A stretch of DNA of 64,000 bases from Pirellulales bacterium. Its GTDB lineage: Bacteria > Planctomycetota > Planctomycetia > Pirellulales > Lacipirellulaceae. The position numbers were made by a program, and so were the translations under genes. Under the pieces are notes generated by a model. The model saw only the letters and a list, made by a program, of their open reading frames with translations. It was not told the DNA's origin and ran no database searches. This document shows positions 25,686 through 53,949 of this stretch, one piece after another; position 1 is the stretch's first letter; each line of letters begins with the position of its first letter. The stretch is from assembly GCA_046349975.1 (NCBI GenBank), contig JAXMBH010000002.1, positions 128,470-192,469 of the forward strand, read 5' to 3'.

Positions 25686-25697
25686 TCGAGGTGGTGC

Positions 25698-37012: not shown

Positions 37013-37441
37013 ATGTTGCCGAAAACATCTGAATACGCGCTGCGCGCTGCCGTATGGCTGGGGCGGGAGCCCGAGAGCACCGAATCGGCCGATGAGCTGG
37101 CGAAGGTGACGAAGGTTCCCCGGCGGTATTTGCACAAGGTGCTGCAAGACCTGGTGCATGCGGGGCTGGTGCGTTCGCAGCCAGGGCCTGGCGGCGGTTA
37201 CGGGCTCGCAAAGAAGCCGAATGCGATTTCGATTCTAGACGTGGTGAATGCGGTGGCACCGCTGGAACGGATTCGCGGCTGCCCATTGGGGCTTAAGTCG
37301 CACACAAGTTTGTGCCCGTTACACAAAGAACTCGATGAAGTGTATGCGACGATAGAAGAGTCGCTGGCGCGGGTGACGATTGGGCAGCTGCTGACGTCGA
37401 CGCGGGATATTGTGCCGCTGTGCGAAGTGGGGCCGCGGTAG
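37013..37441 (+). CDS. Rrf2-family transcriptional regulator (IscR/NsrR-like, 3 Cys)
   Basis: N-terminal wHTH SEYALRA...L, three C-terminal cysteines ([15 protein letters not shown], plus one further Cys) typical of Fe-S-binding Rrf2 proteins. 142 aa. Confidence 0.85.
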
Positions 37442-37561: not shown

Positions 37562-37987
37562 CTATGAGGCGAGCTTTGCATCCATCGTGACTTTGGTGTT
37601 GAGGAGGCGCGAGATGGGGCAGCCGGCTTTGGCATTGTTGGCGGCAGCTTCAAAGGCTTTCTGATCGGCGCCCGGGATTTTCACGCTGACGTCGAGGTGA
37701 GATTCGGTCACGGTGAAACCGGCGTCGGTTTTTTCCATCGTGATCGTGCAGAGCGTTTTGATTTCAGTGGCGGTCATGCCGGCGTTGCCGAGTTGGCCGG
37801 AAAGGGCCATCGAGAAGCAGCCGGCGTGGGCGGCGGCGATAAGCTCTTCGGGATTCGTGCCCTTGCCTTCTTCGAAGCGGGTGTTGAATGAGTACTGGGT
37901 GCTGGAAAGAACGCCGCTGTCGGTCGAGATCGTACCTTTGCCGTCTTTGAGGCCGCCGCTCCAAACTGCCGAGGCTTGCCGCTTCAT
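37562..37987 (-). CDS. OsmC/Ohr-family peroxiredoxin
   Basis: Has the two conserved Cys (AAAHAGCFSM and KAGCPIS) and the OsmC fold pattern. The start was moved to MKRQASAVW to give the typical 142 aa. Confidence 0.8.
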   Translation of the reverse strand: MKRQASAVWSGGLKDGKGTISTDSGVLSSTQYSFNTRFEEGKGTNPEELIAAAHAGCFSMALSGQLGNAGMTATEIKTLCTITMEKTDAGFTVTESHLDVSVKIPGADQKAFEAAANNAKAGCPISRLLNTKVTMDAKLAS

Positions 37988-38232
37988 GGTTTTGCTCCTG
38001 TCTATACGATTTGACGATGTATTTCGGGGACCGCTCATATTGCGCGAGGAGTGGCGGTTCGCCAAGGGGGTAGAGTGGAAGAAGTATGTAGCAGGATTCC
38101 GGATTGCGGTGGCGTTCCGGCTAGTTGGGACTGCTTCGTTGAACTCGATTAGCCGGCCGACTTAACAACTTGTTTGGTGACTGAATTCTTGCGAATTCAG
38201 TTACAGCACGCGGAGCGTGGCTACCATATTTC

Positions 38233-38715
38233 TCAATCGACAGGGCCACGGTCGCGGGTGAAAGCCTCGGCGTACCAGGTTTGCAGCGTGAGTTCTTGCT
38301 TACGGATGCGAGCGAGCAGCATTACCCCTTCGTTGATGAGCGCCCGCGTCAGGCGGGTGGCTTTGTCTTCGTCGGGTTCGAGCTTTGGCGATTGCTCGGC
38401 GGCTCGCGTGAGTGTTTGGCGGAACTTTTCGAAAGCTTCGAGGATGGCGCAGTCCTCTTCTTTGAGCCGGTCGATCTGAGAGAGCAACTCGGGGTCTTGG
38501 TTACCGATTTCGTCATACTCTTCGGTATGAAATTGGGTCAGCTCGCGATTGAGCTTGTCAGCGGCCTCGTTGGCAGTGAGCTGGAGATGTTCGAACCAAA
38601 CCCCCAAATCGCCAGCGATAATCGGTGTGAGCAGCGCTTTCTCAAACGCGTCGAGTGCGGTTTTCAGTTCAGCGTCGGAAGTTGCTGGGGCGGATTGCTT
38701 GCCATCGGTGGTCAT
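38233..38715 (-). CDS. hypothetical acidic helical protein
   Basis: 160 aa with coding-like composition and no recognised family. It lies upstream of osmC on the same strand. Confidence 0.35.
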   Translation of the reverse strand: MTTDGKQSAPATSDAELKTALDAFEKALLTPIIAGDLGVWFEHLQLTANEAADKLNRELTQFHTEEYDEIGNQDPELLSQIDRLKEEDCAILEAFEKFRQTLTRAAEQSPKLEPDEDKATRLTRALINEGVMLLARIRKQELTLQTWYAEAFTRDRGPVD

Positions 38716-39096
38716 TCGTCGCTCCAGAGGCGCGTGTAACTGTGGTTGAAGATGTAGTTCCGCAGTTTTTTAGCAAGCGCCGCGCCAAAAAGGCGAGATG
38801 GTCAGCCAAGATTCAGTCCGGTGTATTTAGTGGCGTGTATTCGATCAGCGTGGCTCATTAATGACCAGTCGTGCTGTGGGCCCGCCGACTGAAAGCACGC
38901 ATGTGACGTGGTTTCCGGCAAATCAAGCTGATTTCAAACTGGCCCAATAAGTGCATATGTGGCCAGTCAGGCCTAGCTGGCGGCGGTGCACATTCCGTCT
39001 ATTTCCAGCATTTCTGTACACGGCGGTGCAGTTCATCGCTTCCCCGACGCATGCGTTCAGCGCTGATACCACGGTTTTGACAAGGAGAATGTCGCC

Positions 39097-42000
39097 ATGC
39101 AGATGTTGGAAGATCAAGCCGAAGCCGGATTGGATCCTCGCGCGCTTCTGACTGCTCTCAACGCGTTCAAGAAGGGGGACTTTTCCGTTCGGCTGGAGAC
39201 TGATGTTAACGGCATGGCAGGCAAGGTGGCGGCCGCGTTCAACGAAGTGCTGGAACTGAACGAGCGGCTGGTCGGCGAGTTGGATCGGATCAGTCAGGTG
39301 GTCGGTAAGGCCGGCCGGCTGAATCAACGAGCGTCGTTGGGCGAAGTTGGCGGCTCGTGGGGGCAGGCGATCAATTCAGTCAATGCGCTGATTAGCAACC
39401 TGGTGCACCCAACAGTCGAGACGAGCCGCGTCATTGGCGCCGTTGCGAAGGGCGACCTTTCGCAGACCATGGCGCTGGAGATTAACAAGCGTCCGCTGCA
39501 GGGCGAGTTCTTGCGGACGGCGAAGACCGTGAACCGGATGGTGAGCCAGCTGGGGTCATTCGCATCGGAAGTGACGCGCGTGGCGCGCGAAGTGGGTACC
39601 GACGGGAAGCTGGGCGGCCAAGCGAAGGTGCGAGGTGTGGCAGGCACGTGGAAGGACCTGACCGATAACGTGAACTTGATGGCCGGTAATCTTACGGGCC
39701 AGGTGCGGAATATCGCGGCGGTGACGACGGCCGTGGCGAACGGCGACTTGACGAAGAAGATCACCGTCGACGTGAAGGGCGAGTTCCTAGAGCTGAAGGA
39801 CACCATCAACACGATGGTGGATCAGCTGCGGTCGTTTGCGTCGGAAGTGACGCGTGTGGCCCGCGAAGTGGGTACCGACGGCAAGCTCGGCGGCCAGGCG
39901 ATGGTGGAAGGCGTTTCCGGTACGTGGAAAGACCTCACCGATAGCGTGAACTTCATGGCCAGTAATCTTACGGGCCAGGTGCGCAACATCGCCGACGTGA
40001 CGACGGCCGTGGCGAACGGCGACTTGTCGAAGAAGATTACGGTGGACGTGAAGGGTGAAATTCTCGAGCTCAAGAACACCATCAACACGATGGTGGATCA
40101 GCTGCGATCGTTCGCGGCAGAAGTGACGCGTGTGGCCCGTGAAGTCGGTACCGAAGGCAAGCTTGGCGGCCAGGCCGATGTGCGCGGCGTGGCCGGCACG
40201 TGGAAGGATCTTACCGACAGCGTGAACTTCATGGCCAGCAACCTCACAGGCCAGGTGCGCAACATCGCCGACGTGACGACGGCCGTCGCGACGGGCGACT
40301 TGTCGAAAAAGATTACGGTTGATGTGAAGGGCGAAATCCTCGAGCTCAAGAACACCATCAACACGATGGTGGACCAACTGCGGTCGTTTGCCTCGGAAGT
40401 GACGCGTGTGGCCCGCGAAGTGGGTACGGAAGGCAAGCTCGGTGGCCAGGCCGATGTGCGCGGCGTGGCCGGCACGTGGAAGGATCTTACCGACAGCGTG
40501 AACTTCATGGCCAGCAACCTCACAGGCCAGGTGCGCAACATCGCCGAAGTGAGCACGGCCGTGGCGAACGGCGACTTGTCGAAGAAGATCACAGTCGACG
40601 TGAAAGGTGAAATTCTCGAGTTGAAGGTGACCATCAACACGATGGTGGATCAGCTGCGGTCGTTTGCGTCGGAAGTGACGCGTGTAGCCCGCGAAGTGGG
40701 TACGGAAGGCAAGCTCGGTGGGCAGGCCGAGGTGAAGGGCGTGAGCGGCACGTGGAAGGATCTCACCGATAACGTGAATTCGATGGCCGGCAACCTCACC
40801 AGCCAGGTGCGCGGCATTGCGGAAGTGACAACGGCCGTGGCCAACGGCGACTTGTCGAAGAAGATTACGGTCGACGTGAAGGGCGAAATCCTGGAGCTCA
40901 AGAACACGATCAACACGCTCGTAGATCAGCTGAGTTCGTTTGCGTCGGAAGTGACGCGTGTGGCCCGCGAGGTGGGTACGGAAGGCAAGCTCGGTGGTCA
41001 GGCCGATGTGAAGGGCGTGAGCGGCACGTGGAAGGATCTCACGGACAGCGTGAACTTCATGGCCGGCAATCTCACGAGCCAGGTGCGCGGCATCGCGGAA
41101 GTGACGACAGCCGTGGCGAATGGCGACTTATCGAAGAAAATTATCGTCGATGTGAAGGGCGAAATCCTCGAGCTCAAGAACACCATCAACACGATGGTGG
41201 ACCAACTGCGGTCGTTTGCCTCGGAAGTGACGCGCGTGGCCCGCGAAGTGGGCACCGAAGGCAAACTCGGCGGTCAGGCCGACGTGCGCGGCGTATCGGG
41301 CACGTGGAAAGACCTCACCGATAACGTGAACTTCATGGCCAGCAATCTTACGGGCCAGGTGCGCAGTATCGCGGAAGTGACGACGGCCGTCGCCCGCGGC
41401 GATTTGTCGAAGAAGATCACGGTCGACGTGAAGGGCGAAATCTTGGAACTCAAGAACACCATCAACACGATGGTGGATCAGCTGAGCTCATTCGCCTCGG
41501 AGGTGACGCGTGTGGCCCGCGAAGTGGGTACGGAAGGCAAGCTCGGTGGTCAGGCGGAGGTGAAAGGTGTTTCCGGTACGTGGAAGGACCTCACCGATAA
41601 CGTGAACTCGATGGCCGGCAACCTCACGAGCCAGGTGCGGGGTATCGCGAAGGTCGTGACGGCTGTGGCCAATGGCGACTTGAAGCGGAAATTGACGGTG
41701 GAAGCGAAAGGCGAAATCGCCGCGCTGGCGGATACGATCAACGGCATGATCGAGACGCTGGCCACGTTCGCCGATCAGGTGACGACAGTCGCCCGTGAAG
41801 TGGGTGTGCAAGGCCGGTTGGGCGGTCAGGCGAGCGTGCCGGGCGCTGCCGGTACGTGGAAGGCGCTGACCGACAATGTGAATCAGCTCGCCGCGAATCT
41901 CACGACGCAGGTGCGGGCCATTGCCGAAGTGGCCACCGCCGTGACGAAGGGCGACCTCACGCGATCGATCTCGGTCGAGGCCCAAGGTGAGGTGGCCGCT

Positions 42001-44814
42001 CTCAAGGACAATATCAATGAGATGATTCGTAACCTCAAGGATACGACACTCAAGAACAGCGAGCAGGACTGGCTCAAGACGAACCTCGCGAAGTTCAGCC
42101 GGATGCTCCAAGGCCAGAAGGACTTGCTCACGGTCGGTCGGCTCATTCTGTCGGAACTCGCGCCGGTGGTGAACGCCCAGCAAGCCATGTTCTACCTGCT
42201 CGATACCGGCCAGGAAGCGGCGCAGCTGGTGCTGCTCGCGAGTTATGCGTATCAGCCGCCGCGCACGGTGGGAACGACGATCGCCCTCGGCGAAGGATTG
42301 GTTGGTCAGTGCGCCGTGGAACGCGAGCAGATTCTGCTCACGAACGTGCCGCCGGAATACACGCAAGTGAGTTCTGGATTGGGCGGTGCTCCGCCGCGAA
42401 GCATCATCGTGTTGCCGGTATTGTTCGAAGGACAGGTGAAGGCCGTGCTGGAGCTGGCGTCGTTTGAAACGTTCAGCCCGGCTCACCAGGCCTTGCTCGA
42501 ACAGCTGACGGAAAGTATCGGCATCGTGCTCAACACGATCGCCGCGAACATGCGGACGGAAGACCTGCTCAAGCAGTCGCAGTCGCTGGCCATGGAATTG
42601 CAGAATCGTCAGCAGGAACTGCAACAAACGAACCAGGAACTCAAGGAAAAAGCTCGCTTGCTCGCCCACCAGAACGTCGAAGTGGAGCGCAAGAACCGCG
42701 AAGTCGAGCAAGCGCGGCAGGCGCTCGAAGAGAAGGCAAAGCAACTCGCACTTACCTCGAAGTACAAGTCGGAGTTCCTGGCGAACATGTCGCACGAACT
42801 GCGGACGCCGCTCAACAGCTTGTTGATCCTTTCCGACCAGCTATCGAAGAACCCCGACGGCAACCTTACGCCGCGGCAGACCGAGTACGCCCAGACGATT
42901 CACTCATCCGGCAACGACCTGCTCACGCTCATCAACGATATTCTCGACCTGTCGAAGATCGAATCGGGTACGGTGGTGCTCGATGTCGGCGAGGTGCGGT
43001 TTACGGAGCTCCACGACTTGCTCGAACGCACGTTCCGGCACGTCGCCGAGGCCAAGGGAGTGGACTTCCTGGTGCATCTCGCGCCAGATTTGCCGCTCAA
43101 CATGCAGACCGATAGCAAGCGCGTGCAGCAGGTACTCAAGAATTTGCTCTCGAACGCATTCAAATTCACACATCGCGGCACGGTATCGCTGGACGTGCGG
43201 ATGTCGCATGCCGGTTGGAGTAGCGACAACGATATGCTCAAAAATGCAGATGCTGTGGTGGCCTTCAGCGTCACCGATACCGGCATTGGCATTCCGCCGG
43301 ATAAGCAGCAGAGCATTTTCGAAGCGTTCCAACAGGCCGACGGCAGCACGAGCCGGAAGTACGGCGGCACGGGCCTGGGCCTCGCGATCAGCCGCGAACT
43401 CGCGCGGCTGTTGGGCGGTGAGATCCGCCTGATCAGCATGCCGGGCGCAGGCAGCACATTCACGCTCTATTTGCCGATGTCGTACACATCGTATACCACG
43501 CCCCGGCCCGCGCGGCGGCAGACGATTGCGCCCGTGGCGGCGGCCGAACCCGAGCCGGCGCCATTGCCCGAGTTCGCGAAAGTTGAAGAGCCGGTCACGT
43601 TCAACGAGTTCGACGATGACCGCGATTCGATTCAAGCGAATGATCGGGTGGTGCTGATCGTGGAAAACGATCCGACATTCGCGAAACTCCTGTTGGAAGC
43701 GGCTCGTGAAGGCGGATTCAAGGGGATTGCGACGTCGCGCGGGGCGGCGGCGTTGTCGCTCGCGCACGAGTATCGAATCTCGGCAGTGACGCTCGACATA
43801 TGCCTGCCAGATATCAACGGCTGGCGGGTGCTGCGGCGACTCAAGCAGGATCTCGACACGCGGCACATTCCGGTGTACGTCGTGTCGACCGAAGACGAAC
43901 GCGAAAGTGCCCAGAGCATGGGCGCCGTCGACACGGTGCAGAAGCCGTTGCAAACAAAGGAGACCATGGATGAGCTGTTCGCAGCGATTCGTCGGTTCAT
44001 CGAACGGCCGGTGAAAGAATTGCTGGTTGTGGAGACCGACGGCGAGCGTCGTGAGAAGTTGCTCAATGTGATTGGCAACGGCGATGTGCGGCCGACCGCG
44101 GTGGCCAGCGGCGCTGAAGCCTTAAAAATCCTGGACGAAAAGCAATTTGATTGTGTTGTGTTCGATGTGAATGCGCCGGAGTCGAGTGTCGACGCCGTGA
44201 TCGATCGACTGCACGCCAACCCGCAGCATAGCGACACGCCGCTGGTGATGTACTCCGAAGAACCGCTGCTCCTCGACGAGGCAATGACCGATCGGCTGGC
44301 CCGCTCGACAACGGTGCGGCACGTGCAGTCGCCCGACCGGTTGCTCGACGAAGTGAACTTACTGCTGCATCGACCGACGTCGACGCTCAGCGAGCCGCAG
44401 CGGCAGATTTTGCAGAAGTTGCACGAGGACGACGCGATCCTCAACGGCAAGAAAGTGCTGATTGTCGATGACGATATTCGCAATATCTTCGCCCTCACGA
44501 GCATCCTGGAACGGTATAATATTCATATCTTGTCGGCGGAAACGGGCCGCGATGCCATTCAAATTCTGCAAGACACGCACGACGTGGATGTGGTCTTGAT
44601 GGACATCATGATGCCCGAGTTTGATGGGCTGGATACGACCCGAGCGATTCGCGAGATTCCGCGGTTCAAGGATTTGCCGATCATTGCGGTGACGGCGAAG
44701 GCCATGAAGGGCGACCGCGAGAAGTGCATTGAAGCGGGCGCTTGGGACTATTTATCGAAACCGGTGAACCCGGAGCAGTTGTTGGCAGCGTTGCGTGCTT
44801 GGATACGGCGCTAA
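39097..44814 (+). CDS. soluble hybrid sensor histidine kinase with poly-HAMP array (about 20 HAMP domains), GAF, HisKA/HATPase_c and three receiver domains
   Basis: 1905 aa with AAGGAG 8 nt upstream of the ATG and no TM segment. Nine 92-aa units (...[92 protein letters not shown]...) each contain a canonical and a divergent HAMP. These are followed by a GAF domain ([14 protein letters not shown]...[20 protein letters not shown]) and a coiled coil. The kinase core has an H-box ([17 protein letters not shown]) and a G-box ([23 protein letters not shown]). The three REC domains end with a canonical one (VLIVDDD...[13 protein letters not shown]...K). Confidence 0.9.
39560..42050 (+). repeat. nine tandem 276-bp coding repeats (8 about 88-99% identical, 1 diverged) encoding the poly-HAMP units
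   Basis: The periodicity is visible in the nucleotide sequence. For example, 40150-40290 and 40426-40566 are nearly identical, and the AAGTGACGCGTGTGGCCCG-CGAAGTGGGTAC blocks recur every 276 nt. It also creates many spurious antisense ORFs. Confidence 0.85.
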
Positions 44815-44824
44815 TCTCGCGTGA

Positions 44825-46969
44825 GTGACGATGGGAGATCGGGCGGGCATCCTGCCGCTGCTGCTGAGAGACGATGTGATGAAGTCCAATTGCGAGCCAG
44901 TGAACATCCTGGTGGTTGACGACGTGCCAGAAAAGATTCTGGCCATCGAGGCTGCGCTGGGTGAATTGGGGCAGACACTCGTGAAGGCGAACTCGGGCCG
45001 CGAAGCGCTGCGATGCCTGCTGAAAGATGATTTCGCCGTGATCCTGCTCGATGTCAACATGCCGGAGATGGACGGCTTCGAAACGGCCGCGCTCATTCGT
45101 GAGCGGCGGCGCAGCGAACATACGCCGATCATCTTCATCACGGCCTTCAATGATGATGTGCAGATGGCGAAGGGGTACTCGCTCGGGGCGGTTGATTTCA
45201 TCTCGACGCCAATCGACCCAGACGTGCTGCGCACCAAGGTGAGTGTGTTCGTCGACCTGTTTCAGAAGACGGAGACGATCCGACAACAGGCGGCCCACCG
45301 CGTGCAACTCGCGCGGGAGCAAGCGGCTCGGCAGGTCGCTGAGAAGGCGATGCGGCGTTCCGCACTGCTCGCGGAGGCAAGCCGACTGTTGTCGCGGTCG
45401 CTGGATTTCGACACGACGCTTACCAGTTTGTACCGCACGATTGTGCCGGCGCTCGCCGATGGTTGCCAGCTCGTGCTCTACGACACGAATATGGATATCT
45501 GGTACTCGCACATCAAAACAGGCGAGGAGGAGCACGACGGCGGCAACGCCAGCTCGCACGCGCGCGTGGAGCAAGTCGACCCGACGCTGGCCTCGGTCGT
45601 GAAAAGCGCGGTCGAAAGCGGGCACGCGCAGCCGATTTCGCCGGAGTTCGTGAAGAACGCGCCGAATTTGGGGTCCCGGAAGAATTGGTCGTACGCGGTC
45701 GTGGCGCCGCTCATTGCTCGAGATATGCCGCTGGGGGCCATTGTATGCTGTCTGCAGGGCACCAACCGACAGTTCGAGCCGGCTGACCTCGCACTGATCG
45801 AAAATCTCGCGAGCCGCGCGGGGACGGCGCTCGACAATGCGCAGCTTTTCCAAACGATTCGCGAAGGCGAGCGCCGCAAGGACGAATTCCTGGCGATGCT
45901 CGGTCACGAGCTACGCAATCCACTCGCCGCGATCACCAACGCCGGTGAGCTCACGCGGCTGCTTGATGCCCAGGATCCGTCGTTCCAGGAATCACTCGAG
46001 ATCATTCGGCAGCAAGCGTCGCTCATGAAGCGGCTGGTCGACGACTTGCTCGATGTGTCGCGCATCACGAGCGGTCGCGTGCAGTTGCAGAAATCGCTCG
46101 TGGATGTGTCGGAGATCGTGACGCGCGTGGCGGAGTCGAACGATGTATTGTTCTCTTCGCGCGGTCACACATTGCACCTCAGCACGCCCGAGGAGGATTT
46201 GTTCTTGGAGGCCGATCCGTATCGGCTCGAGCAAATTCTATCGAACTTGCTGGTGAATTCGGCGAAATACACCGACCCCGGCGGCGATATTTGGTTCAGC
46301 GCGGCCCGGGAAGGCGACGATGTGGTCTTCCGTGTGCGCGATACTGGCATAGGCATTGGGCCCGATTTGCTGCCGAATGTGTTTGATCTGTTTGCACAGG
46401 CGAACCGATCGCTGCATCGGGCCGAGGGCGGTTTAGGCATTGGTTTGACGATCGTTCGCGGTCTCACCGAGCTCCACGGCGGCCGCGTGTGGGCGACCAG
46501 CGAAGGCTTTGGCCGAGGCGCTGAATTCGTGATTTCACTGCCTGCCGTCGTGGAAGCAAATAAGCCTGCTGAACCGGAAGAACCGCCGCTGGCCGAAGAG
46601 ACGATTCGGCGGCGGCGTGTGCTGGTAGTCGAAGATCAACCGGCGCTGTCGCATGTGACGGTGGCTTTGCTTAAAAAGTTGGGCCACGAGGTGCGGTCGG
46701 CGGCCGATGGTCCCGAGGCCCTGATGGCTGTGCGGGAGTACAACCCGGAAGTGGTGTTGCTCGATATCGGGTTGCCGGGCATGGATGGATATGAAGTGGC
46801 GCGTTGCGTCCGCAGCGAGCTTGGCGAGGATGCGCCGCTGCTGGTGGCGATGACCGGTTATAGCCAGCACGAGGTGAGCCGGCACGCGCGGCGTGCGGAG
46901 TTCGACCATCACCTGGTGAAGCCGGCTGATATGAGTGCGCTTAAAGAATTGCTCACGCACTCGCGTTGA
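44825..46969 (+). CDS. hybrid histidine kinase: N-terminal receiver, GAF-like linker, HisKA/HATPase_c and C-terminal receiver
   Basis: It has two receiver domains (REC1 NILVVDDVPE...ILLDVNMPEMDG and REC2 VLVVEDQPAL...VLLDIGLPGMDG), an H-box (FLAMLGHELRNPLAAI) and a G-box (GGLGIGLTIVRGLTELHGGRVWA). A possible alternative start is at 44879 (MKSNCEP). Confidence 0.85.
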   Translation: MTMGDRAGILPLLLRDDVMKSNCEPVNILVVDDVPEKILAIEAALGELGQTLVKANSGREALRCLLKDDFAVILLDVNMPEMDGFETAALIRERRRSEHTPIIFITAFNDDVQMAKGYSLGAVDFISTPIDPDVLRTKVSVFVDLFQKTETIRQQAAHRVQLAREQAARQVAEKAMRRSALLAEASRLLSRSLDFDTTLTSLYRTIVPALADGCQLVLYDTNMDIWYSHIKTGEEEHDGGNASSHARVEQVDPTLASVVKSAVESGHAQPISPEFVKNAPNLGSRKNWSYAVVAPLIARDMPLGAIVCCLQGTNRQFEPADLALIENLASRAGTALDNAQLFQTIREGERRKDEFLAMLGHELRNPLAAITNAGELTRLLDAQDPSFQESLEIIRQQASLMKRLVDDLLDVSRITSGRVQLQKSLVDVSEIVTRVAESNDVLFSSRGHTLHLSTPEEDLFLEADPYRLEQILSNLLVNSAKYTDPGGDIWFSAAREGDDVVFRVRDTGIGIGPDLLPNVFDLFAQANRSLHRAEGGLGIGLTIVRGLTELHGGRVWATSEGFGRGAEFVISLPAVVEANKPAEPEEPPLAEETIRRRRVLVVEDQPALSHVTVALLKKLGHEVRSAADGPEALMAVREYNPEVVLLDIGLPGMDGYEVARCVRSELGEDAPLLVAMTGYSQHEVSRHARRAEFDHHLVKPADMSALKELLTHSR

Positions 46970-47203
46970 GCATGTTGGGTTCAAAACGGTTTAATGGTAA
47001 GTGAGGGCTTATTCGTGTGAAGCAATCGTGCCGACGCCGTGGAAGCCGCGGCGGCAAGCGATAGTTGGGACTGCGCAAGGCGTTGCGGCTGCGAAGCGAC
47101 AAAGTAAACGCGGCATCCTTGCAGGCGACTGGGAATACTGGAAACAATTAAGTCATGTAGCTTGATTCGCTCGGGCGAACTCGGCTATCTGGAGGAAAAA
47201 AGC

Positions 47204-48676
47204 ATGTCACGCATTTTGGTAATCGATGACGATCGTTCAGTGCGGCATTTGATCGGTAAGGCATTCGAGGAATCGGATGTCGAAGTAGTGCCGGCAGCCA
47301 CTTCAGATGAAGGCCTGCAGCTGCTCGGCAGCCGGCAGTTCGACGTAGTGCTCCTCGACATTTTATTGCCAGAGTCTTCCGGTCTGGATGTGTTCGAACG
47401 CATTCGGCAGATTGACCCGAAGCTGCCAGTGATCTTCATCACGTCGCTCTCGAGCAGCGATACGGCGATCAAGGCCATGACGCTGGGCGCATTCGATTAC
47501 TTGCTTAAACCGCTCGATTTAGCGCGGATTCGCGACCTGGTGCGGCAAGCGATCGAGATTCGCCGCTTAATGAGCATTCCGGTCGAGATGCCCGGCGCTC
47601 GGAACGGGCGCATGAACGGTGCGGTGACCGAGAATCGTACCGACACGCTCGTGGGCAATAGCCCGCAGATGCAGGAAGTGTACAAGGCGATCGGCCGCGT
47701 GGCGCCGCAAGATGTGACCGTGCTCATTCGTGGCGAGAGCGGCACGGGCAAAGAGCTTGTCGCCCGGGCGCTCTATCAGCATAGCCCGCGTGTGAAGGGC
47801 CAGTTCCTAGCGGTGAACTGCGCGGCGATCCCGGATGCGTTGCTGGAAAGCGAGCTGTTCGGCCACGAGAAAGGGGCCTTCACCGGCGCCGATCAGCGGC
47901 GAATCGGCAAGTTCGAACAATGCTCGGGCGGCACGCTGTTCCTCGATGAAATTGGCGATATGTCGCCGCTCGTGCAGAGCAAGGTGCTGCGGGTGTTGCA
48001 ATCGCAACAGTTTGAACGTGTCGGCGGCAACCAGACGATCAGCACCGATGTGCGCGTCATCGCGGCGACGAACCGCGACCTCGAGAAAATGGTTGAGGAA
48101 GGCGATTTCCGTTCCGACCTCTACTACCGGCTCAGCGGGTTCACGATCCAGCTCGCCCCGTTGCGTGATCGGCCCGAGGACCTGCCGCCGTTGCTCGAAA
48201 ATTATCTGGCACTCTTCAGCAAGGAACTGAGCAAAGATGTGCACGGTTTCTCGCCCGAGGCGATGGACGTGCTGCTCAATTACTCTTGGCCCGGCAACGT
48301 ACGCGAACTGCAAAACGTGCTTAAGCAGACGTTGCTGCGATCCGCCGGGCATGTGGTGATTCCAGATTTCATTCCCGATCGTGTTCGCACGCCGGGCAGC
48401 AGCTCGGCGAGCGATGGCGGCGACTTGCCAGGGACCGACCTTCGGCAGTTCGTCGATGAACGCCTGGAACACGAATCGACGGATTTGTATGCCGAGGCAC
48501 TTGAGTTCATGGAGCGCTACGTGGTGACTCGCGTGCTCCGCGTGTGCGAGGGCAACCAGTCGAAGGCCGCCCGGATGCTCGGCATCACCCGCGGTTGTTT
48601 ACGGAGCAAGGTGCGGGCGCTCAAAGTCTCAATCGACACGCGCGTGCAGGTGGAAGGCGAGCCGGTCGAAGTCTAA
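47204..48676 (+). CDS. sigma-54-dependent response regulator (NtrC family: REC + AAA+ + Fis HTH)
   Basis: The receiver domain reads ILVIDDD...VLLDILLPESSG. The AAA+ domain has a GESGTGKE Walker A motif, a GAFTGA sigma-54 contact motif and an ESELFGHEKGAFTGA-like segment. The C-terminal HTH reads ARMLGITRGCLRSKVRAL. GGAGG lies 8 nt upstream of the chosen ATG. Confidence 0.9.
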   Translation: MSRILVIDDDRSVRHLIGKAFEESDVEVVPAATSDEGLQLLGSRQFDVVLLDILLPESSGLDVFERIRQIDPKLPVIFITSLSSSDTAIKAMTLGAFDYLLKPLDLARIRDLVRQAIEIRRLMSIPVEMPGARNGRMNGAVTENRTDTLVGNSPQMQEVYKAIGRVAPQDVTVLIRGESGTGKELVARALYQHSPRVKGQFLAVNCAAIPDALLESELFGHEKGAFTGADQRRIGKFEQCSGGTLFLDEIGDMSPLVQSKVLRVLQSQQFERVGGNQTISTDVRVIAATNRDLEKMVEEGDFRSDLYYRLSGFTIQLAPLRDRPEDLPPLLENYLALFSKELSKDVHGFSPEAMDVLLNYSWPGNVRELQNVLKQTLLRSAGHVVIPDFIPDRVRTPGSSSASDGGDLPGTDLRQFVDERLEHESTDLYAEALEFMERYVVTRVLRVCEGNQSKAARMLGITRGCLRSKVRALKVSIDTRVQVEGEPVEV

Positions 48677-48925
48677 GGACGGAGGCCGCACACGGCCAAC
48701 TTGCGGCTTTGTCTTAGAGCGTGTTTTGAAGTTGAAGCAGTTGCCTTGCAGCCCTCAGCGTTCGGGAGCGGGCAGGTGCCGGGGTTGCTGGCACCATCAG
48801 GCTTTGGCCTAACCTCTCCCAAAGCGAGAAGGAGGATTGCCAAACACGCGCCCAGGGTGGCTGGCTGGTACGGAAAAGAAGTTACCGTCGGAAAAAGTGT
48901 GACGGGTTGAAGAGACCAACCGGCG

Positions 48926-49297
48926 TCAAGCCGTCACACTATTGCCCACATTGCTGCGAATCGCTGCAAGTAGCTGCTGCAATTCCTGCTCGAGCTCGAT
49001 AAACTGGGCATCCACATGTTCGAGTTTTGCGTGGTGGCCGGCGTCTTCAATTTGCTGAGCGGCCTGCCCTGCCCTTTCGCCGCCGCAGCCAAGCACGAGC
49101 CCTTTCAGGGCGTGCGCCTTCGCGCGAATGCTTGCCGCGTCCCTCCGTTCCACTGCCTGCTTCAGTTCCTCGGCGAGTGGTGGCGCATCATCCAACAGGA
49201 TGGCCGCCATCTCACGGAAAAGTTGTTCATCGCCACCAAAGCGGGTTAGAGTCGCCTCAATGTTGAGAATCCTTGCAGTCAACGCACCATCTCTCAT
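48926..49297 (-). CDS. Hpt (histidine phosphotransfer) domain protein
   Basis: 123 aa. It has the Hpt phosphoacceptor region AKAHALKGLVLGCGGERAGQAA in a four-helix-bundle-like context. Confidence 0.7.
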   Translation of the reverse strand: MRDGALTARILNIEATLTRFGGDEQLFREMAAILLDDAPPLAEELKQAVERRDAASIRAKAHALKGLVLGCGGERAGQAAQQIEDAGHHAKLEHVDAQFIELEQELQQLLAAIRSNVGNSVTA

Positions 49298-49651
49298 CGC
49301 TGTCCACTCGGCCGCAACTCACACCATTTACCCGCGGTAACGGAACCGCAACTAACGACGTTTCGGCTACACTGTAATCGAAACACCTGCGGAAGTGTAT
49401 TGCCGGCGGAGTTATATGGCGTCGCCGCGTGCGTGCCCGCATTCGGAGGTCCGCCAGTCCTGTAAATAATTTCGCAGTTTAGTGGGGATATCGGGCGGCA
49501 AACCTTCGCGGCGGCGGCGTTCCGTTGCGGACCAATTTCCGCGGACTTCAGCGGCTCGTTGCCGCACTTCATTCGTGCTGATTCTGCTGATTCTTAACAT
49601 TGGTCGGCTCCTGCTGAACTGCATGCTCGTGTGCGAAAGAATTGTTTGCGT

Positions 49652-49978
49652 CTATTTCGAAGCGTTCTGTTTTCGAGTACGGGCAGCCTTTCTTGCCGAG
49701 GCCCGTCGGGCGGCCTTTGGCCGGGCGGCCGCTGCTGCACCGCCTTTCTTGCCACCAGTACGCGATGGCACCTTGTTTTGTTCCTTGCCGCGACCGGAAC
49801 CCCCCGGTTTCTTGCCGCCATGGTCGCTGGCATTCACCGTCGCCCAGGCCCGCCGCTCCGCTTCTTTCTCCGACAAGCCGCGGCTTTCGTAGCCCTCTTC
49901 GATATGCTGCGCCTTGCGTTTTTGCTTGTCCGTATATTTCGATTTTTCGCCTCGCGGCATGACTCCCTCCCTGGCCAT
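49652..49978 (-). CDS. small Lys/Arg/Gly-rich disordered protein with conserved N-terminal PRGEKSKYTDKQKRKAQHIEEGYE...RAWATVN motif (stress-protein-like)
   Basis: 108 aa with a very basic, low-complexity C-terminus. The N-terminal about 50 aa appear to be a conserved small-protein motif seen in other bacteria. It is preceded by a consensus sigma-54 promoter. Confidence 0.5.
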   Translation of the reverse strand: MAREGVMPRGEKSKYTDKQKRKAQHIEEGYESRGLSEKEAERRAWATVNASDHGGKKPGGSGRGKEQNKVPSRTGGKKGGAAAAARPKAARRASARKAARTRKQNASK

Positions 49979-50073: not shown

Positions 50074-50089
50074 AGCAAGAACCGTGCCA
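50074..50089 (-). promoter_or_regulatory. sigma-54 (-24/-12) promoter TGGCACggttcTTGCT directing transcription of the 49978 gene
   Basis: The reverse complement of 50074-50089 is TGGCAC-N5-TTGCT, a perfect match to TGGCAC-N5-TTGCW with GG-N10-GC spacing. It lies about 95 nt upstream of the ATG at 49978. Confidence 0.55.
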
Positions 50090-50281: not shown

Positions 50282-50298
50282 TGGCATACGACGTGCTT
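50282..50298 (+). promoter_or_regulatory. weaker sigma-54-like promoter TGGCATacgacgtGCTT upstream of the YflT-like gene
   Basis: GG-N10-GC spacing is satisfied. The -24 element matches in 5 of 6 positions, while the -12 element is degenerate (GTGCTT). It lies about 50 nt upstream of the ATG at 50349. Confidence 0.3.
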
Positions 50299-50348: not shown

Positions 50349-50915
50349 ATGAAGGCGGCAACAATGGCAAGCAATACAACCACGGTGAAACTAAACGAAC
50401 ACGCAAGCGAGGAGCGGCCGATTGAAGTCGGCGTGTTTGATGCGATCGATGCCGCCCGCCAGGCCGTGCACGGCCTGCGAGCGGCCGGATTTGGCATCGG
50501 GCAAATCACGGTCGTGTGCTCCGACGAAACAAAGGAACGTTATTTTAGCGAGTTCGAACATCAAGATCCCGCGGGCACTCACACGCCGACGGCTTCGATC
50601 GCGGGTGGAACGATAGGGGCAGTCGTTGGCGGTTTGGCCGTTGTGGCATCCGCCGTGGCTACCGGTAGTTTGGCGCTGTGGGCGGCCGGACCGATTTCAG
50701 CGTGGGCTGGCGGCGTGGCTGGCGGCCTCGTGGGCGCAATGATGACACGCGGCGTCGAGAAAGAGTTGGCAAACTACTATCAACAAGCCGTGATGAACGG
50801 TCAGATTTTGGTGGCGGCCGAGGATCACAGCGAGGCGAGCGCCAGCCGTCTGGCAGAGGCCGCGCGCATTCTTTCCCAGGCGGGCGCAAAGCCCCTGCCG
50901 TTGCGAGAAGGCTAG
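50349..50915 (+). CDS. YflT/general-stress-protein-17M-like domain protein with Gly-zipper membrane segment
   Basis: The N-terminal IEVGVFDAIDAARQAVHGLRAAGFGIGQITVV matches the YflT-type domain. It is followed by a Gly/Ala-rich hydrophobic segment (GGTIGAVVGGLAVVASAVATGSLALWAAG). 188 aa, with a possible alternative start at 50364. Confidence 0.55.
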   Translation: MKAATMASNTTTVKLNEHASEERPIEVGVFDAIDAARQAVHGLRAAGFGIGQITVVCSDETKERYFSEFEHQDPAGTHTPTASIAGGTIGAVVGGLAVVASAVATGSLALWAAGPISAWAGGVAGGLVGAMMTRGVEKELANYYQQAVMNGQILVAAEDHSEASASRLAEAARILSQAGAKPLPLREG

Positions 50916-51186
50916 GCGGCAGTGCGGCATTCTTGATGGGTGCGCAACCACATTGGTCCGAAGTACGTCATAAGTGCGGCTGCCACCAGTGCTTGCATCG
51001 CAAAGTTTTAGCTTCGCTTTCGCACAACGATTACGCGCAAGCCGTACAACGCGTGTTCGTGCGACGTAGTCGACCACTCCGGCACATGAAATGCTTTAGC
51101 CAACGTAACCGAAAATAACGACTTTGTTTTCCTGGATTGTTTTTCTTTGCCATCCTCGCATAGGCGCTGGAGGCACGTTGCACACT

Positions 51187-51489
51187 ATGAAGATTAACCA
51201 CCGCTTCACCGCTCTGACCTTGCTCGGCACCAGTTTGTTCATTGAACTCGCTGGGTGCTCATCGAAGCCCGTCGGGCAGTCGACAACCACTCGCGGCGTA
51301 GCAGAACACGATACGGCGGCTCCGGTCACGCCGCCGCCGGTGACAACACCCGCGCCTGCACCGTCGACCGACGCGACGAGCGATCGGCCGGGTGACCGCA
51401 AAGTGGATGTGCAGGTCGGCGGACCGGCCGGAGTCAACGTCCAAGTCGGACCAAAGACTGGCGCCAACAACGGTACAACGGCGCAATAA
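51187..51489 (+). CDS. small lipoprotein (Pro/Thr-rich)
   Basis: Begins MKINHRFTALTLLGTSLFIELAGCSS, a signal peptide with a LAGC lipobox. The mature part is low-complexity and Pro/Thr/Val-rich. The tracked ORF begins at a TTG at 51124. Confidence 0.5.
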   Translation: MKINHRFTALTLLGTSLFIELAGCSSKPVGQSTTTRGVAEHDTAAPVTPPPVTTPAPAPSTDATSDRPGDRKVDVQVGGPAGVNVQVGPKTGANNGTTAQ

Positions 51490-51631
51490 CTAACGTCGAC
51501 TGCAAATTGTGTTGTGACCTCGAGCGAATGAAGGCACTTCGCGGTGCGATTCGGGTTAGCTCCTGAGAAGTGGAGTCGCTTCGCTCAACTGGATGTTTTT
51601 CGTTTCCGCGTTTTTGAAAAGGAGAAGTTGT

Positions 51632-52348
51632 ATGATATTGAATCAACGTAGCGTTGCGTTAGCGGCGACGGTCGTGGCCGCCCTGCTCGTCTTCGCGACC
51701 AGCGATGCCCAAGCGCGTCACCGCCGTGGCGGCAGCTGCGGGTCCTGCGGTGGCGAGTCTTCCGGCTCCTGGGGTTCCTCAGGATCCTGGGGCGGTTCCT
51801 CATGTGGCTCGTTCGGCGGTCGGTGGCGCCGTCACCATGGTAGCTCCGGGAGCTGTGGCAGTTCCGGCGGCAGCAGCTGTGGCTGCGAAAGCGAGGCCAG
51901 CTGCAGCTCATGCCAATCCAGCTGCAACACTTGTGAGTCGAACTGCAACACATGTGAGTCGAGTTGCAATACCTGCGGCACTAGCGAAAGCAGCTGCAGC
52001 ACTTGCTCTGGTAGTTCAGACGCCGACGACGATGACCACAAAGAGTCTCACGAAGCCAATTATCATCAAGATCAGAGTGTCGATAGCCATCGCACGATGA
52101 CCGGAAGCGCCGAGATGCACGACAACGGTGCGAACTCGCAGAACCGTAATCGCGAAAATGACGACATGCGCGCTCCAGACCGCGACGATCGTGCCGCCAG
52201 TCATTCCAGCAGCTCAACCGACACAAAGTCGGATAACAGTAGCGACAAGTCGTCGAAAGCAGAGGGCCAAAGCAACGATAGCGACAATAAGGAGAGCAAA
52301 TCCGACTCATCGAGCGAGAATAAATCAGAAACAGGCGCTCCGAAGTAA
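51632..52348 (+). CDS. secreted Cys/Ser/Gly-rich low-complexity protein with CxxC and CNTCES repeats and acidic Ser/Asp-rich tail
   Basis: AAAGGAG lies 8 nt upstream of the ATG at 51632. A signal peptide (MILNQRSVALAATVVAALLVFATSDAQA) is followed by RHRRGGSCGSCGG...CGSFGG...CGSSGGSSCGCESEASCSSCQSSCNTCESNCNTCESSCNTCGTSESSCSTC. The remainder is Asp/Ser/Asn/Lys-rich. Confidence 0.55.
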   Translation: MILNQRSVALAATVVAALLVFATSDAQARHRRGGSCGSCGGESSGSWGSSGSWGGSSCGSFGGRWRRHHGSSGSCGSSGGSSCGCESEASCSSCQSSCNTCESNCNTCESSCNTCGTSESSCSTCSGSSDADDDDHKESHEANYHQDQSVDSHRTMTGSAEMHDNGANSQNRNRENDDMRAPDRDDRAASHSSSSTDTKSDNSSDKSSKAEGQSNDSDNKESKSDSSSENKSETGAPK

Positions 52349-52537: not shown

Positions 52538-53050
52538 CTAACGACTACTCACGGATGCCGGATTGACCGAACTCTCGGCGATTTGTGTCAGCTGTTTGTC
52601 GGTCGATTTTTCTTCGTCGAGTGTCTGTTCGAGCAACTCGGCCGCGTAAGAATCGGCAATGCGCTGCGCGAATGTGCGAGCCGTACCATAGGCTGCAATT
52701 TCATAATGTTCGACACGCTGCGCCGCCGCAATCAGGGCAGCGTCCAAAACGTCTTTGTCGCCTTCAGCGCTCAACACGTTGCTGCCTTCTTTGATGAGCC
52801 CACTCATTGCGGCGCACGTCTCTCGTTCGGCATCGAGCCCGCGGTGTTCGAAGATCGACTCTAGCCGCTGGGCATGCTTTTCAGTTTGCGTAAGGTGGCT
52901 TTGAAATGCGCGTTTGAGCGCCGGGTTGGTCGCTTTGTCAGCCATTTTCGGAAGCGCGTCAATTAACTGCTGCTCGGCGTCGTACAGGTCCTTCAGCTCG
53001 TGAACGAACAGTTCTTCCAAGGAGTTGAACTCCTCACTCATAAAAAGTCC
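52538..53050 (-). CDS. ferritin-like YciE/YciF (DUF892) stress protein
   Basis: The N-terminus reads LEELFVHELKDLYDAEQQLIDALPKMADKATNPALKRAFQSHLTQTEKHAQRLE, and the protein has a four-helix ferritin-like pattern. The start was chosen at MGLFM, which has GGAGG 6 nt upstream. Confidence 0.8.
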   Translation of the reverse strand, partial: GLFMSEEFNSLEELFVHELKDLYDAEQQLIDALPKMADKATNPALKRAFQSHLTQTEKHAQRLESIFEHRGLDAERETCAAMSGLIKEGSNVLSAEGDKDVLDAALIAAAQRVEHYEIAAYGTARTFAQRIADSYAAELLEQTLDEEKSTDKQLTQIAESSVNPASVSSR

Positions 53051-53263
53051 CATCGCTGACCTCCAATACCTTATTGCTATTGCGTGGCTGCGTACATTCA
53101 CAGGTCGCAGTACTACCCGGCCTAAACCCGGACGCATAGGTCATGCCAATTGCCCTCGCGCTTGCCACGGCGAAAAATCGTTGAAGACCGATACCGATCG
53201 AGGCGGGAGCAGCGTGCGACGTTGGGTGGCCAGTACTTGGTCGGGCCGTCGCGAGTTTAGAGA

Positions 53264-53363
53264 TACACGGGGCGGTGGCATCGGCTGCAGAGCGTTGCGG
53301 CCTCTGCGGAGAAAGCTCTCTCTTGCCGGATTGCAGATCTTGGCGGGAACACCGCCCCGTGTA
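53264..53363. repeat. 100-nt element bounded by a perfect 14-bp inverted repeat (TACACGGGGCGGTG ... CACCGCCCCGTGTA) inside a 900-nt gene-free region
   Basis: Read directly from the sequence. The interior also contains sub-palindromes (CTGCAGAG/CTCTGCGG and GATTGCAGATC). It may be a structured ncRNA or a MITE-like element. Confidence 0.4.
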
Positions 53364-53949
53364 TGGGCCTTGCTTGAAAATCGGCGAGGTCGCACTTAGC
53401 GACCGACGTGATTTGGTCTCGCGGTTTGAGAACCCGCGATGGTATAGGCGGATTTAGCAAGTGATGTGCCGCATAGCGGCCACCGTCCGAAATTAGTCGA
53501 AAGTGCTACGCTTTCACGTCAAAAGGGCCGTATCGCGCTCCGCATTCGATGCCGACTGGATGGTCCGACAGTGACAGCGTTGAGTTAAATTCGGCCAATC
53601 TGAGCGGGGATCAATCATTTGGATCAATGCAGCACGGTGATGCGTGCCTATCGAGCCGCCACCCAACGAGCGATGTTGTTCAAAACAACACCAGACCTTG
53701 GTTTCAAATCGGCCTTGGAAACGGTCGCATCCGGACCGAGATCGCAAAATATACCTCCTGCTGCCGAGAGTCGCCGGCAGGGAGGCTAGGACAGGTTCGC
53801 CTTTCGACTGCCTTGTGGCAACGCCGCGCGTGACCGCACGATCAAATCTGACCCCACTCTGCCCGTACAACATGACGGGTATGCGGTTTGCGTTACAGGC
53901 ACTTTGTTGTGAGATGAACTCAGTCTAAATCGAAAATTCCCGCGAGGAA

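Follow-up and report, generated by a model that had tools for sequence, protein, structure and literature searches.

A block of four signalling genes in a planctomycete raises the question of whether two hybrid histidine kinases, a stand-alone histidine phosphotransfer protein (Hpt) and an NtrC-type activator of σ54-dependent transcription belong to a single phosphorelay and, if so, which genes that relay would control. The block occupies positions 39,097 to 49,297 of a 64,000-nucleotide stretch of contig JAXMBH010000002.1 (positions 128,470 to 192,469, forward strand) from a member of the Pirellulales; the whole of this 64-kb stretch is referred to here as the window. Domain architecture, gene order in related genomes and a set of σ54-type promoters on both sides of the block together point to a conserved core made up of the second kinase (HK2), the activator and the Hpt, to which the first kinase (HK1), a poly-HAMP protein, would be a lineage-variable addition, and to a predicted output in a local set of small stress-type genes.

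HK1 is composed, in order, of a HAMP array, a GAF domain, a coiled coil, the DHp (HisKA) and CA (HATPase_c) domains of the kinase core, and three receivers, REC1, REC2 and REC3. The Pfam matches are strong throughout (E-values of 3.9e-96 for HAMP, 2.5e-86 for HAMP_2, 2.5e-18 for GAF_2 at residues 1008-1145, 1.6e-19 for HisKA at 1224-1291 and 7.8e-29 for HATPase_c at 1339-1461), and three Response_reg stretches make up the C-terminal part. The array holds about 21 HAMP domains, 11 of one type and 10 of the other, with Pfam HAMP and HAMP_2 matches alternating in a register of 92-residue di-HAMP modules that starts at about residue 10; the mean identity between modules is 80%, and the array appears in the DNA as a 276-bp tandem repeat of 7.9 copies at 85% identity (39547-41718, plus strand). 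No plausible membrane segment was found in HK1, the most hydrophobic 19-residue stretch of which falls in the GAF domain and contains charged residues. A di-HAMP array lacking a membrane segment, followed by GAF, DHp-CA and receivers, is what distinguishes AskA/AskB-type kinases, and HK1 has each of these elements. This kinase-associated poly-HAMP family (array, GAF, DHp-CA, receivers) was defined in a 2026 paper that solved segments of Myxococcus xanthus AskA with 4 and 6 HAMP domains by crystallography and states that the signalling role of the arrays is unclear (PMC13446029). Residues 5-291 of HK1 match PDB entries 9trk_A and 9trj ('histidine kinase,Gcn4p'; 417 bits for 9trk_A, E about 1e-123). 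From agreeing construct lengths we infer that 9trk and 9trj are the 6- and 4-HAMP AskA constructs of that paper (PMC13446029), so that the first six HAMP domains of HK1 would correspond to them. The kinase region, in turn, matches the structure of Caulobacter ShkA (6qrj, E 3.3e-41). The H-box of HK1 reads HELRTPL, and N-box and G-boxes are present in the translation. Upon alignment to CheY, REC3 is canonical (DD-D-T-K), REC1 is near-canonical (EN-D-S-K) and REC2 is degenerate, with His in place of Lys; by analogy with the ShkA pseudoreceiver, REC2 may be regulatory (PMC6969517). HK1-type proteins are common across Planctomycetota, with 60-68% identity over the part from GAF to REC3. In several assemblies the homologous genes are truncated or split into two open reading frames (ORFs; L084 and L088), and their total length varies by genome, which suggests assembly or frameshift problems together with real gain and loss of di-HAMP units.

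HK2 is likewise a soluble hybrid kinase, and no credible membrane segment was found in its sequence. Orthologues align from the ATG at 44879 onwards, which makes this codon the likely start; it follows the HK1 stop codon after a gap of 64 nt. The H-box HELRNPL is unchanged across seven aligned orthologues, N-box and G-boxes are present, and the C-terminal receiver is canonical (ED-D-T-K). The N-terminal receiver (44879-45300, plus strand) keeps its Asp residues and carries Thr in place of the conserved Lys (DFISTP), a replacement that is invariant in the seven orthologues; the best NCBIfam match of this N-terminus is the Myxococcus regulator EpsF, far under its cut-off. The NtrC-type activator has a canonical receiver (DD-D-T-K), and its translation shows the Walker A motif GESGTGKE and a GAFTGA motif (EKGAFTGA). 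It scores under all NCBIfam equivalog cut-offs (485.8 against 558.6 for NtrC, 459.5 against 714 for AtoC, 375 against 760 for ZraR, 363 against 800 for LuxO, and 391.5 against 502.6 for PEP_resp_reg), and we therefore regard it as a member of an unnamed NtrC-family clade and the 'GlnG' labels found in databases as generic.

The fourth protein is a true Hpt by several measures. Its Pfam score is 37.9 bits against a cut-off of 24.6 (E 2.2e-9), it matches the PDB Hpt structure 3myf (E 9.5e-8), and in NCBIfam it lies nearest to the C-terminal Hpt domains of BarA, TorS and ArcB. A homologue search yielded at least 22 close stand-alone Hpts, and the AHALKG motif is conserved in an alignment with six stand-alone orthologues and with the fused versions found in three distant relatives (L002, L003 and L050), described below. 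Six-frame searches with hidden Markov models found no second Hpt in the window and seven receiver domains, all of them within HK1, HK2, the activator and one further gene encoding a REC-HTH_8 protein. An earlier note on this DNA had proposed that both hybrid kinases end in receivers and that a stand-alone Hpt and an NtrC-type activator are encoded in the same block; the Pfam domains bear this out, with the addition that HK2 also begins with a receiver. The note had further seen here the layout of a complete relay. The list of parts is indeed complete, comprising a kinase core with CA domain, a fused canonical receiver, an Hpt with HxxKG motif and a terminal phosphorylatable receiver, and the catalytic motifs of all four proteins are intact (H-boxes, N and G boxes, Asp pockets, HALKG and GAFTGA). 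The layout, however, is not that of one operon: the Hpt gene is on the minus strand and converges on the activator gene, so that it is not co-transcribed with the kinases.

The activator has many orthologues at 79-92% identity, several of them labelled Lacipirellulaceae, and eight loci with close activator orthologues were compared gene by gene with the window. HK2, the activator and a convergent Hpt are contiguous in all nine loci, counting the window (L081-L086 and L089 included). Across the eight relatives, identities to the window proteins are 73-84% for HK2, 79-92% for the activator and 46-55% for the Hpt, which is in every case a separate protein of 118-134 residues encoded on the strand opposite the kinases. 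Even in L086, where two unrelated genes are inserted between activator and Hpt, the Hpt is kept. Judged by gene order, the conserved unit is the three-gene block HK2-NtrC-Hpt and not a four-gene block.

A scan of one genome per species added four more distant activator orthologues at 56-61% identity. In three of them, L002 (Kolteria novifilia Pan216), L003 and L050 (a Bythopirellula metagenome-assembled genome, MAG), the activator orthologue (56-60% identical) is adjoined by a fused kinase of 919-967 residues consisting of a sensor, HisKA, HATPase_c, two receivers and a C-terminal Hpt. The sensors are DUF4118 or RsbRD_N, plus PAS. The fused Hpt aligns over its full length with the window Hpt, sharing the motifs LDxxGTLxRxGGD and AHxxKG, and in L003 and L050 the fused gene takes the same convergent position as the window Hpt. 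Near the fourth activator orthologue (L001), which lies on a 14.6-kb contig, no Hpt was found. Because of the gene fusion in L002, L003 and L050, the free Hpt is predicted to work with a kinase-borne receiver and with this clade of activators. The fused kinases could not clearly be assigned as orthologues of HK1 or of HK2: tblastn identities were 27-33% to both and 33-41% for the receivers, and did not discriminate between them.

The same gene order could also reflect a two-step system, in which the DHp histidine of HK2 would phosphorylate the activator directly, and the C-terminal receiver of HK2 and the Hpt would do no more than drain off phosphate, offer a phosphatase route or connect to another, unlinked regulator. 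HK2 and activator genes are co-oriented neighbours in 9/9 loci, the Hpt gene belongs to a different transcription unit on the other strand, and the Hpt evolves much faster than HK2 and the activator (46-55% versus 73-92% identity). Lux hybrid kinases, moreover, are known to dephosphorylate their Hpt as well (PMC5394107). We nevertheless think a two-step system unlikely. It is general knowledge that free regulators normally lose out to a tethered receiver in the competition for the DHp histidine; the linkage of Hpt and activator is preserved in every one of the nine loci; L002, L003 and L050 have the Hpt joined to a kinase beside the activator orthologue, with no other kinase between; and the window offers the Hpt no other phosphorylatable regulator, the REC-HTH_8 protein having no acceptor Asp.

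The position of HK1 is less constant. It lies directly upstream of HK2 in four of the nine loci, namely the window, L084 and L085 (92-94% identity) and L089 (81%); in L081, L082 and L086 the place next to HK2 is taken by the gene for a 160-residue protein that in the window lies to the left of HK1. HK1-HK2-type pairs occur in L084, L085, L087, L088 and L089. In the 10.9-Mb genome of L087, homologues of HK1 (73% identity) and of HK2 (48%, full-length) stand next to each other in this order, and neither activator nor Hpt lies within 10 kb of the pair. In L088 an HK1 homologue is followed by a REC-PAS-kinase-REC protein, again without an activator or Hpt nearby; this HK2-like protein is best conserved in its N-terminal receiver, at 63% identity to that of HK2 versus 49% for the kinase part. 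A similar arrangement is known from M. xanthus, where askB is immediately followed by a second hybrid kinase gene, askC, and where the third receiver of AskA binds the AskC receiver in a two-hybrid assay (PMC7643160). The likeness of HK2 to AskC drawn here is one of gene order. By the same comparison of gene order, HK2 is the hinge between two conserved modules, the broadly distributed HK1-HK2 pair and the HK2-NtrC-Hpt block conserved at family level.

These pairs bring in the possibility of two independent systems, in which HK1 and HK2 would form an Ask-like complex whose own outputs would run through protein-protein or DNA contacts, as has been proposed for AskA, AskB and AskC, and the activator and Hpt would be fed by an unlinked hybrid kinase. 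Such a division would account for the pairs of L087 and L088 and for the unrelated fused kinase beside the activator in L002, L003 and L050, and the Ask study reports no Hpt (PMC7643160). What makes it improbable is the place of HK2, which stands directly upstream of the activator in 9/9 loci with or without HK1 and has a canonical C-terminal receiver that needs an Hpt, the only one in 64 kb being 2 kb off; L050, in addition to its fused kinase, has an HK2-like gene about 9 kb from the activator orthologue. The expectation in the earlier note that the four genes would co-occur in related genomes thus held for HK2, activator and Hpt and failed for HK1; because HK1 is absent from five loci and the pair occurs elsewhere without activator or Hpt, the four genes are not an obligate unit.

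If the relay exists, its targets should carry σ54 promoters. The consensus used was TGGCAC-N5-TTGCW, with GG at -24 and GC at -12, and a strict core of GGCAC-N5-TTGC. The window contains five strict cores versus 0.99 expected, a number reached in none of 100 shuffles, and four of the five fall between 50.0 and 56.2 kb; the density in 76 unrelated loci is 0.017 per kb. With a relaxed core, 10 of the 17 matches in the window lie at 49.3-56.3 kb (binomial P = 2e-6), where about one is expected after shuffling. Measured against the full consensus, one site in this island is exact and three have one mismatch, with weaker ones in addition. Altogether nine σ54-type promoters flank the regulatory genes, eight of them 53-97 nt ahead of a start codon and the ninth at a distance of about 400 nt. 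The claim of several σ54 promoters at 49.6-56.1 kb is therefore well founded, four of the five strict cores lying there, and the idea that this island is a candidate target of the activator gains support from the recurrence of the motifs in relatives; the candidate regulon also takes in the Hpt gene itself.

The motifs recur before orthologous genes in L081-L086 and L089, with GG and GC fixed and varying spacers. The 46 sites compared were selected by motif, so that the GG and TGC elements were themselves selected for; the spacer varies. The motif upstream of the 160-residue protein gene is repeated at the same position in L081, L082, L084, L085 and L086, and that of the putative lipoprotein gene occurs at a similar position in the same five relatives. 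Equivalents of the YflT-like gene promoter are found in L082, L084, L085 and L086, of the 83-residue protein promoter in L081 and L082, and of the promoter ahead of the 66-residue protein and CsbD genes in L081, L084 and L085. The REC-HTH_8 gene is preceded by a near-identical motif in four relatives (L081, L082, L084 and L085), and in the same four the DUF1328 promoter has invariant GG and GC and a variable spacer. In 9/9 loci a σ54 motif stands at the head of the operon whose last gene is that of the Hpt. In the window this promoter (50075-50088) probably drives transcription from 49978 through to 48926, Hpt gene included, and a terminator scan found no terminator-like site on the minus strand between these positions. 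In L003 and L050 a strict motif also stands ahead of the gene for the fused kinase, in L003 by way of a homologue of the 160-residue protein gene that lies directly upstream of the fused gene behind the same σ54 motif. CsbD and YflT-like genes with σ54 motifs flank the activator orthologue of L003 and L050 as well.

Whether these promoters answer to the adjacent activator is a separate matter. Dyad enumeration over the 46 upstream regions found no shared enhancer (upstream activator site, UAS) motif. The dyad TGGT-N9-ACCA occurs in six sequences versus about 0 expected, and 7 of its 14 genome-wide copies are upstream of promoters in relatives, with no exact copy at the window promoters; TCGCG-N12-CGCGA was rejected as non-specific, and 9-mers shared upstream of the Hpt-operon promoter in eight genomes gave nothing convincing. 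The promoters could thus be real yet answer to some other enhancer-binding protein, in which case the NtrC-type protein encoded next to them would control unlinked genes. Planctomycetes are reported to have many σ54 activators and predicted promoters (PMC12316311), and L083 and L089 keep the activator gene though most of the island is absent. We attach little likelihood to this arrangement, in view of the Hpt-operon promoter, which stands next to the activator gene in all nine loci, L083 and L089 included, of the CsbD or YflT-like genes with σ54 motifs that flank the activator orthologues of L003 and L050, and of the window itself, in which no second AAA+ activator was found among the ORFs scanned (part of those in the window). 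In L083 and L089 a σ54-like motif also occurs within the 3' end of the HK2 gene; it was rejected as a promoter because it coincides with codons for a conserved V-A-R-C-V-R and the motif is absent from the window. Scans for σ70-type promoters and terminators gave numbers at or below shuffle expectation and carry no information, except that no terminator was seen ahead of the Hpt gene.

Taken together, we consider it probable, at roughly 60%, that the locus encodes a cytoplasmic multi-kinase phosphorelay through which nearby small genes of stress type are transcribed in a σ54-dependent manner. HK2 would autophosphorylate on its H-box histidine and pass the phosphoryl group to its own C-terminal receiver; the free Hpt, through the histidine of AHALKG, would carry it to the receiver of the NtrC-type activator, which would then assemble and remodel σ54 RNA polymerase at the roughly nine promoters that lie to either side of the regulatory genes. 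HK1 would be a lineage-variable extra input, most likely acting on HK2 via the atypical N-terminal receiver, whether through phosphotransfer or through the kind of receiver-receiver contact that AskA and AskC are reported to make, and might also feed the Hpt directly through its canonical REC3. Since one of the promoters heads the operon ending in the Hpt gene, the relay should reinforce itself by positive feedback.

Several observations weigh against this relay. The source is a MAG of an uncultured Pirellulales bacterium, and the relay is read from its sequence. HK1 is absent from 5/9 loci, its pairing with HK2 persists in L087 and L088 away from any activator or Hpt, and the adjacency of HK2 and activator genes equally fits direct transfer from kinase to regulator. 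The Hpt is just 46-55% identical where the activator and HK1 reach 92-94%, and the fused kinases carry different sensors and have no clear orthology to HK1 or HK2. Phosphorylation of the N-terminal receiver of HK2 is uncertain because the conserved Lys is absent. Finally, no common UAS that would tie the promoters to this activator could be made out, and rpoN was not among the ORFs scanned, which were part of those in the window. The three alternatives set out above are not all mutually exclusive.

Table 1. Coordinates (window numbering) of the signalling genes, candidate target genes and σ54-type promoters. The position of the GG element is given for each promoter.
Feature	Position	Strand	Description
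160-aa protein	38233-38715	-	Divergent from kinase genes; predicted four-helix bundle
Promoter	38772-38787 (GG 38786)	-	TGGCGCGGCGCTTGCT; 58 nt upstream of 160-aa protein gene
HK1	39097-44814	+	1905 aa; soluble AskA/AskB-type poly-HAMP hybrid histidine kinase (Pfam)
HK2	44879-46969	+	Soluble hybrid kinase REC-GAF-HisKA-HATPase_c-REC (Pfam); ORF opens at GTG 44825, 714 aa
NtrC-type activator	47204-48676	+	Response_reg, Sigma54_activat (4.5e-74), AAA_lid_14, HTH_8 (Pfam)
Hpt	48926-49297	-	123 aa; stand-alone; convergent with NtrC-type gene; AHALKG phospho-His motif
Small basic protein	49412-49624	-	About 60-70 aa; motif NWSxxERRRRxGLPPDxP; directly upstream of Hpt gene
108-aa basic Lys/Gly-rich protein	49652-49978	-	ORF; first gene after σ54 promoter
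Promoter	50075-50088 (GG 50088)	-	GGCACGGTTCTTGC; exact TGGCAC-N5-TTGCW; 97 nt upstream of 49978
Promoter	50283-50296 (GG 50283)	+	GGCATACGACGTGC; 53 nt upstream of YflT-like gene
YflT-like protein	50349-50915	+	188 aa; Pfam YflT (heat-induced stress protein domain) 3.8e-4, below cut-off
Promoter	51081-51094 (GG 51081)	+	GGCACATGAAATGC; 93 nt upstream of putative lipoprotein gene
Putative lipoprotein	51187-51489	+	Signal peptide ending LAGC
Secreted Cys/Ser/Gly-rich acidic protein	51593-52348	+	Follows putative lipoprotein
DUF892 protein (YciE/YciF-like ferritin-fold)	52538-53053	-	Pfam 1.5e-56; ORF opens at 53137, likely start near 53053
Promoter	53457-53470 (GG 53470)	-	GGCACATCACTTGC; about 400 nt upstream of DUF892 start
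Promoter	53878-53891 (GG 53878)	+	GGTATGCGGTTTGC; GGTAT-N5-TTGC; 59 nt upstream of REC-HTH_8 gene
REC-HTH_8 regulator	53950-54630	+	No AAA+ domain found (Pfam)
DUF1328 small membrane protein	54802-54972	-	56 aa; Pfam 1.6e-13
Promoter	55059-55072 (GG 55072)	-	GGCACGCAGCTTGC; 87 nt upstream of DUF1328 gene
Promoter	55233-55246 (GG 55233)	+	GGTACATCGATTGC; 83 nt upstream of small membrane-protein gene
83-aa protein	55329-55580	+	One N-terminal membrane helix
CsbD-family protein	55594-55809	-	Pfam 6.2e-19; after 66-aa protein gene
66-aa protein	55838-56038	-	Followed by CsbD gene
Promoter	56101-56114 (GG 56114)	-	GGCACATCGATTGC; 63 nt upstream of 56038

The genes behind these promoters encode mostly small proteins (Table 1). 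In the operon ending in the Hpt gene, the 108-residue protein has orthologues at 71-78% identity in L082, L083 and L089, and the small basic protein is kept in all seven close relatives at 41-60%; neither has a family match. Orthologues of the YflT-like protein are found at 72-79% in five relatives. The pair formed by the putative lipoprotein and the secreted acidic protein is weakly conserved, at 33% identity and in L081 only, and has no family match. The DUF892 protein has an orthologue at 75% in L081, where the distance between promoter and gene is alike (motif at 15791, gene start at 15384); its leader of about 400 nt (53054-53456, minus strand), in which neither a convincing ORF nor an Rfam match was found, could be a novel cis-regulatory RNA. 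DUF1328 orthologues reach 80-89% in four relatives, those of the 83-residue protein occur in L081 and L082, and a similar small gene is located upstream of CsbD behind a σ54 motif in L003. The 66-residue protein and CsbD genes have orthologues in L081, L084 and L085, and the sequence downstream of their promoter contains a ribosome-binding site and an ATG.

The REC-HTH_8 protein, with orthologues at 54-64% in four relatives, has a receiver in which the acidic pocket is missing and Glu occupies the position of the phosphorylated Asp in the alignment to CheY. Because of these two changes, the protein is predicted to be incapable of phosphorylation, and it may be a phosphorylation-independent feedback regulator. 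The suggestion that it competes with the NtrC-type activator for the same DNA sites was dropped as unsupported, the HTH regions being just 39% identical.

The candidate regulon also reaches to the left of HK1, where a promoter precedes the gene for the 160-residue protein. Orthologues of this protein at 43-49% identity occur in five close relatives, with a σ54-type promoter in every relative that has it. No Pfam or NCBIfam match was found; a single-sequence AlphaFold2 model (predicted local distance difference test score, pLDDT, of 81) has four helices, and a Foldseek search of PDB retrieved generic bundles alone, none of them at E <= 0.001. The protein lacks a conserved His and is therefore no second Hpt. 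Just beyond it lie an OsmC-like peroxiredoxin gene (37562-38065, minus strand), co-oriented with the gene for the 160-residue protein and 168 nt downstream of it, and a gene for an Rrf2-family regulator (37013-37441, plus strand); this neighbourhood is not conserved in the relatives.

The nature of these genes raises a broader and more tentative possibility, which we hold to be less likely than not to be correct: that small general-stress or osmostress proteins of the Pirellulales (CsbD, YciE-like DUF892, DUF1328, a YflT-like protein and others) are run by σ54 rather than by a sigma factor of the RpoS, SigB or EcfG type. In such a case an AskA-type poly-HAMP kinase would signal through a partner hybrid kinase and a free Hpt to an NtrC-type activator, as a bacterial counterpart of the fungal relay from group III kinase through Ypd1 to Ssk1, with the Hpt gene inside the regulon and the REC-HTH_8 protein as a built-in modulator.

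The genes for the Hpt LuxU and the activator LuxO adjoin in Vibrio. There, the hybrid kinases LuxN, LuxQ and CqsS signal through LuxU to the σ54 activator LuxO (PMC5394107). The locus described here resembles that system in that receiver-ended hybrid kinases would converge on one small free Hpt and then on an NtrC-family activator, and in that Hpt and activator genes are neighbours. It differs in several respects: the activator is not LuxO (363 against a cut-off of 800 bits); the kinases are soluble HAMP/GAF proteins, whereas the Lux kinases are membrane autoinducer receptors; the Hpt gene is convergent and part of a predicted σ54 target operon instead of sharing an operon with the activator; and the predicted targets are genes for small stress-type proteins, where those of Lux are the Qrr small RNAs. 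In Caulobacter, ShkA, a soluble kinase with the order DHp-CA-pseudoreceiver-receiver, signals through the Hpt ShpA to the σ54 activator TacA (PMC6969517). In HK1, as in ShkA, a degenerate receiver precedes the final canonical receiver, and the fused kinases of L002, L003 and L050 share the order DHp-CA-REC-REC. Unlike the ShkA-ShpA-TacA system, the present locus has two kinases, HK1 with its poly-HAMP array and HK2 with its N-terminal receiver; its predicted targets are of stress type and not cell-cycle genes, and no sign of cyclic di-GMP control was seen. The kind of system is thus already known from LuxU-LuxO and ShkA-ShpA-TacA, and mechanistically it is no departure from known relays.

The Ask proteins have been connected to MrpC/FruA and to development, with no Hpt or σ54 activator described (PMC7643160), whereas the HK1-HK2 pair, which shares the gene layout of askB-askC, adjoins Hpt and NtrC-type genes in the window. 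The array of HK1 is also shorter, with about 21 HAMP domains against 31 in AskB (PMC13446029). In fungi, the group III hybrid kinase (Nik1/Os-1/TcsC), Ypd1 and Ssk1 constitute the osmostress (HOG) relay (PMC11253588, PMC13446029), and the parallel to a cytoplasmic poly-HAMP kinase, a free Hpt and a response regulator with stress-type predicted targets is by analogy only; the fungal output is a mitogen-activated protein kinase cascade and not σ54, and fungal HAMP arrays are shorter. The kinase-REC-Hpt fusions of L002, L003 and L050 recall the unorthodox kinases BarA, ArcB and TorS, from which the window differs in having its Hpt encoded by a separate gene on the other strand. A survey of σ54 promoters found stress-related predicted targets in Planctomycetia (UspA, MscS and chaperones), and its main text does not contain the terms CsbD, 'general stress' or Hpt (PMC12316311).

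Elsewhere in the window, a cyclic di-AMP (ydaO-type) riboswitch (33336-33602, minus strand; 39.5 bits against an Rfam gathering score of 38) lies directly upstream of a gene for an 818-residue SPFH/Band-7 protein (30884-33340, minus strand). An Rfam scan at gathering scores found no known RNA in the region of 37-57 kb, and a tRNA scan found no tRNAs. GC skew is negative over 1-24 kb (about -0.1) and positive over 30-48 kb, where it reaches +0.28 at most; the change is steepest at 29.5-30.5 kb. DnaA boxes do not cluster near this change, the whole window containing one match with a single mismatch. Two large ORFs on the minus strand (23247-26396, 1049 residues, and 26465-29815, 1116 residues) and a 630-residue ORF on the plus strand (15704-17596) have no Pfam match at E <= 1e-5.

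Three features of the locus deserve attention: a poly-HAMP kinase as candidate input, an Hpt gene that falls within the predicted regulon, and the occurrence of split and fused Hpt forms in related genomes. Free and fused (kinase-REC-REC-Hpt) versions beside orthologous activators are a natural example of domain fission and fusion in a phosphorelay. For the Planctomycetota, the locus adds a well-footprinted candidate σ54 regulon, the members of which resemble general-stress proteins of other phyla. AskA, AskB and AskC are the only bacterial poly-HAMP kinases that have been studied, and they have no defined phosphotransfer output (PMC7643160). The locus therefore represents a concrete and testable candidate output pathway for AskA-type kinases and, should the broader reading of a stress set run by σ54 prove correct, bacterial poly-HAMP kinases would have gained their first defined downstream pathway and physiological output.

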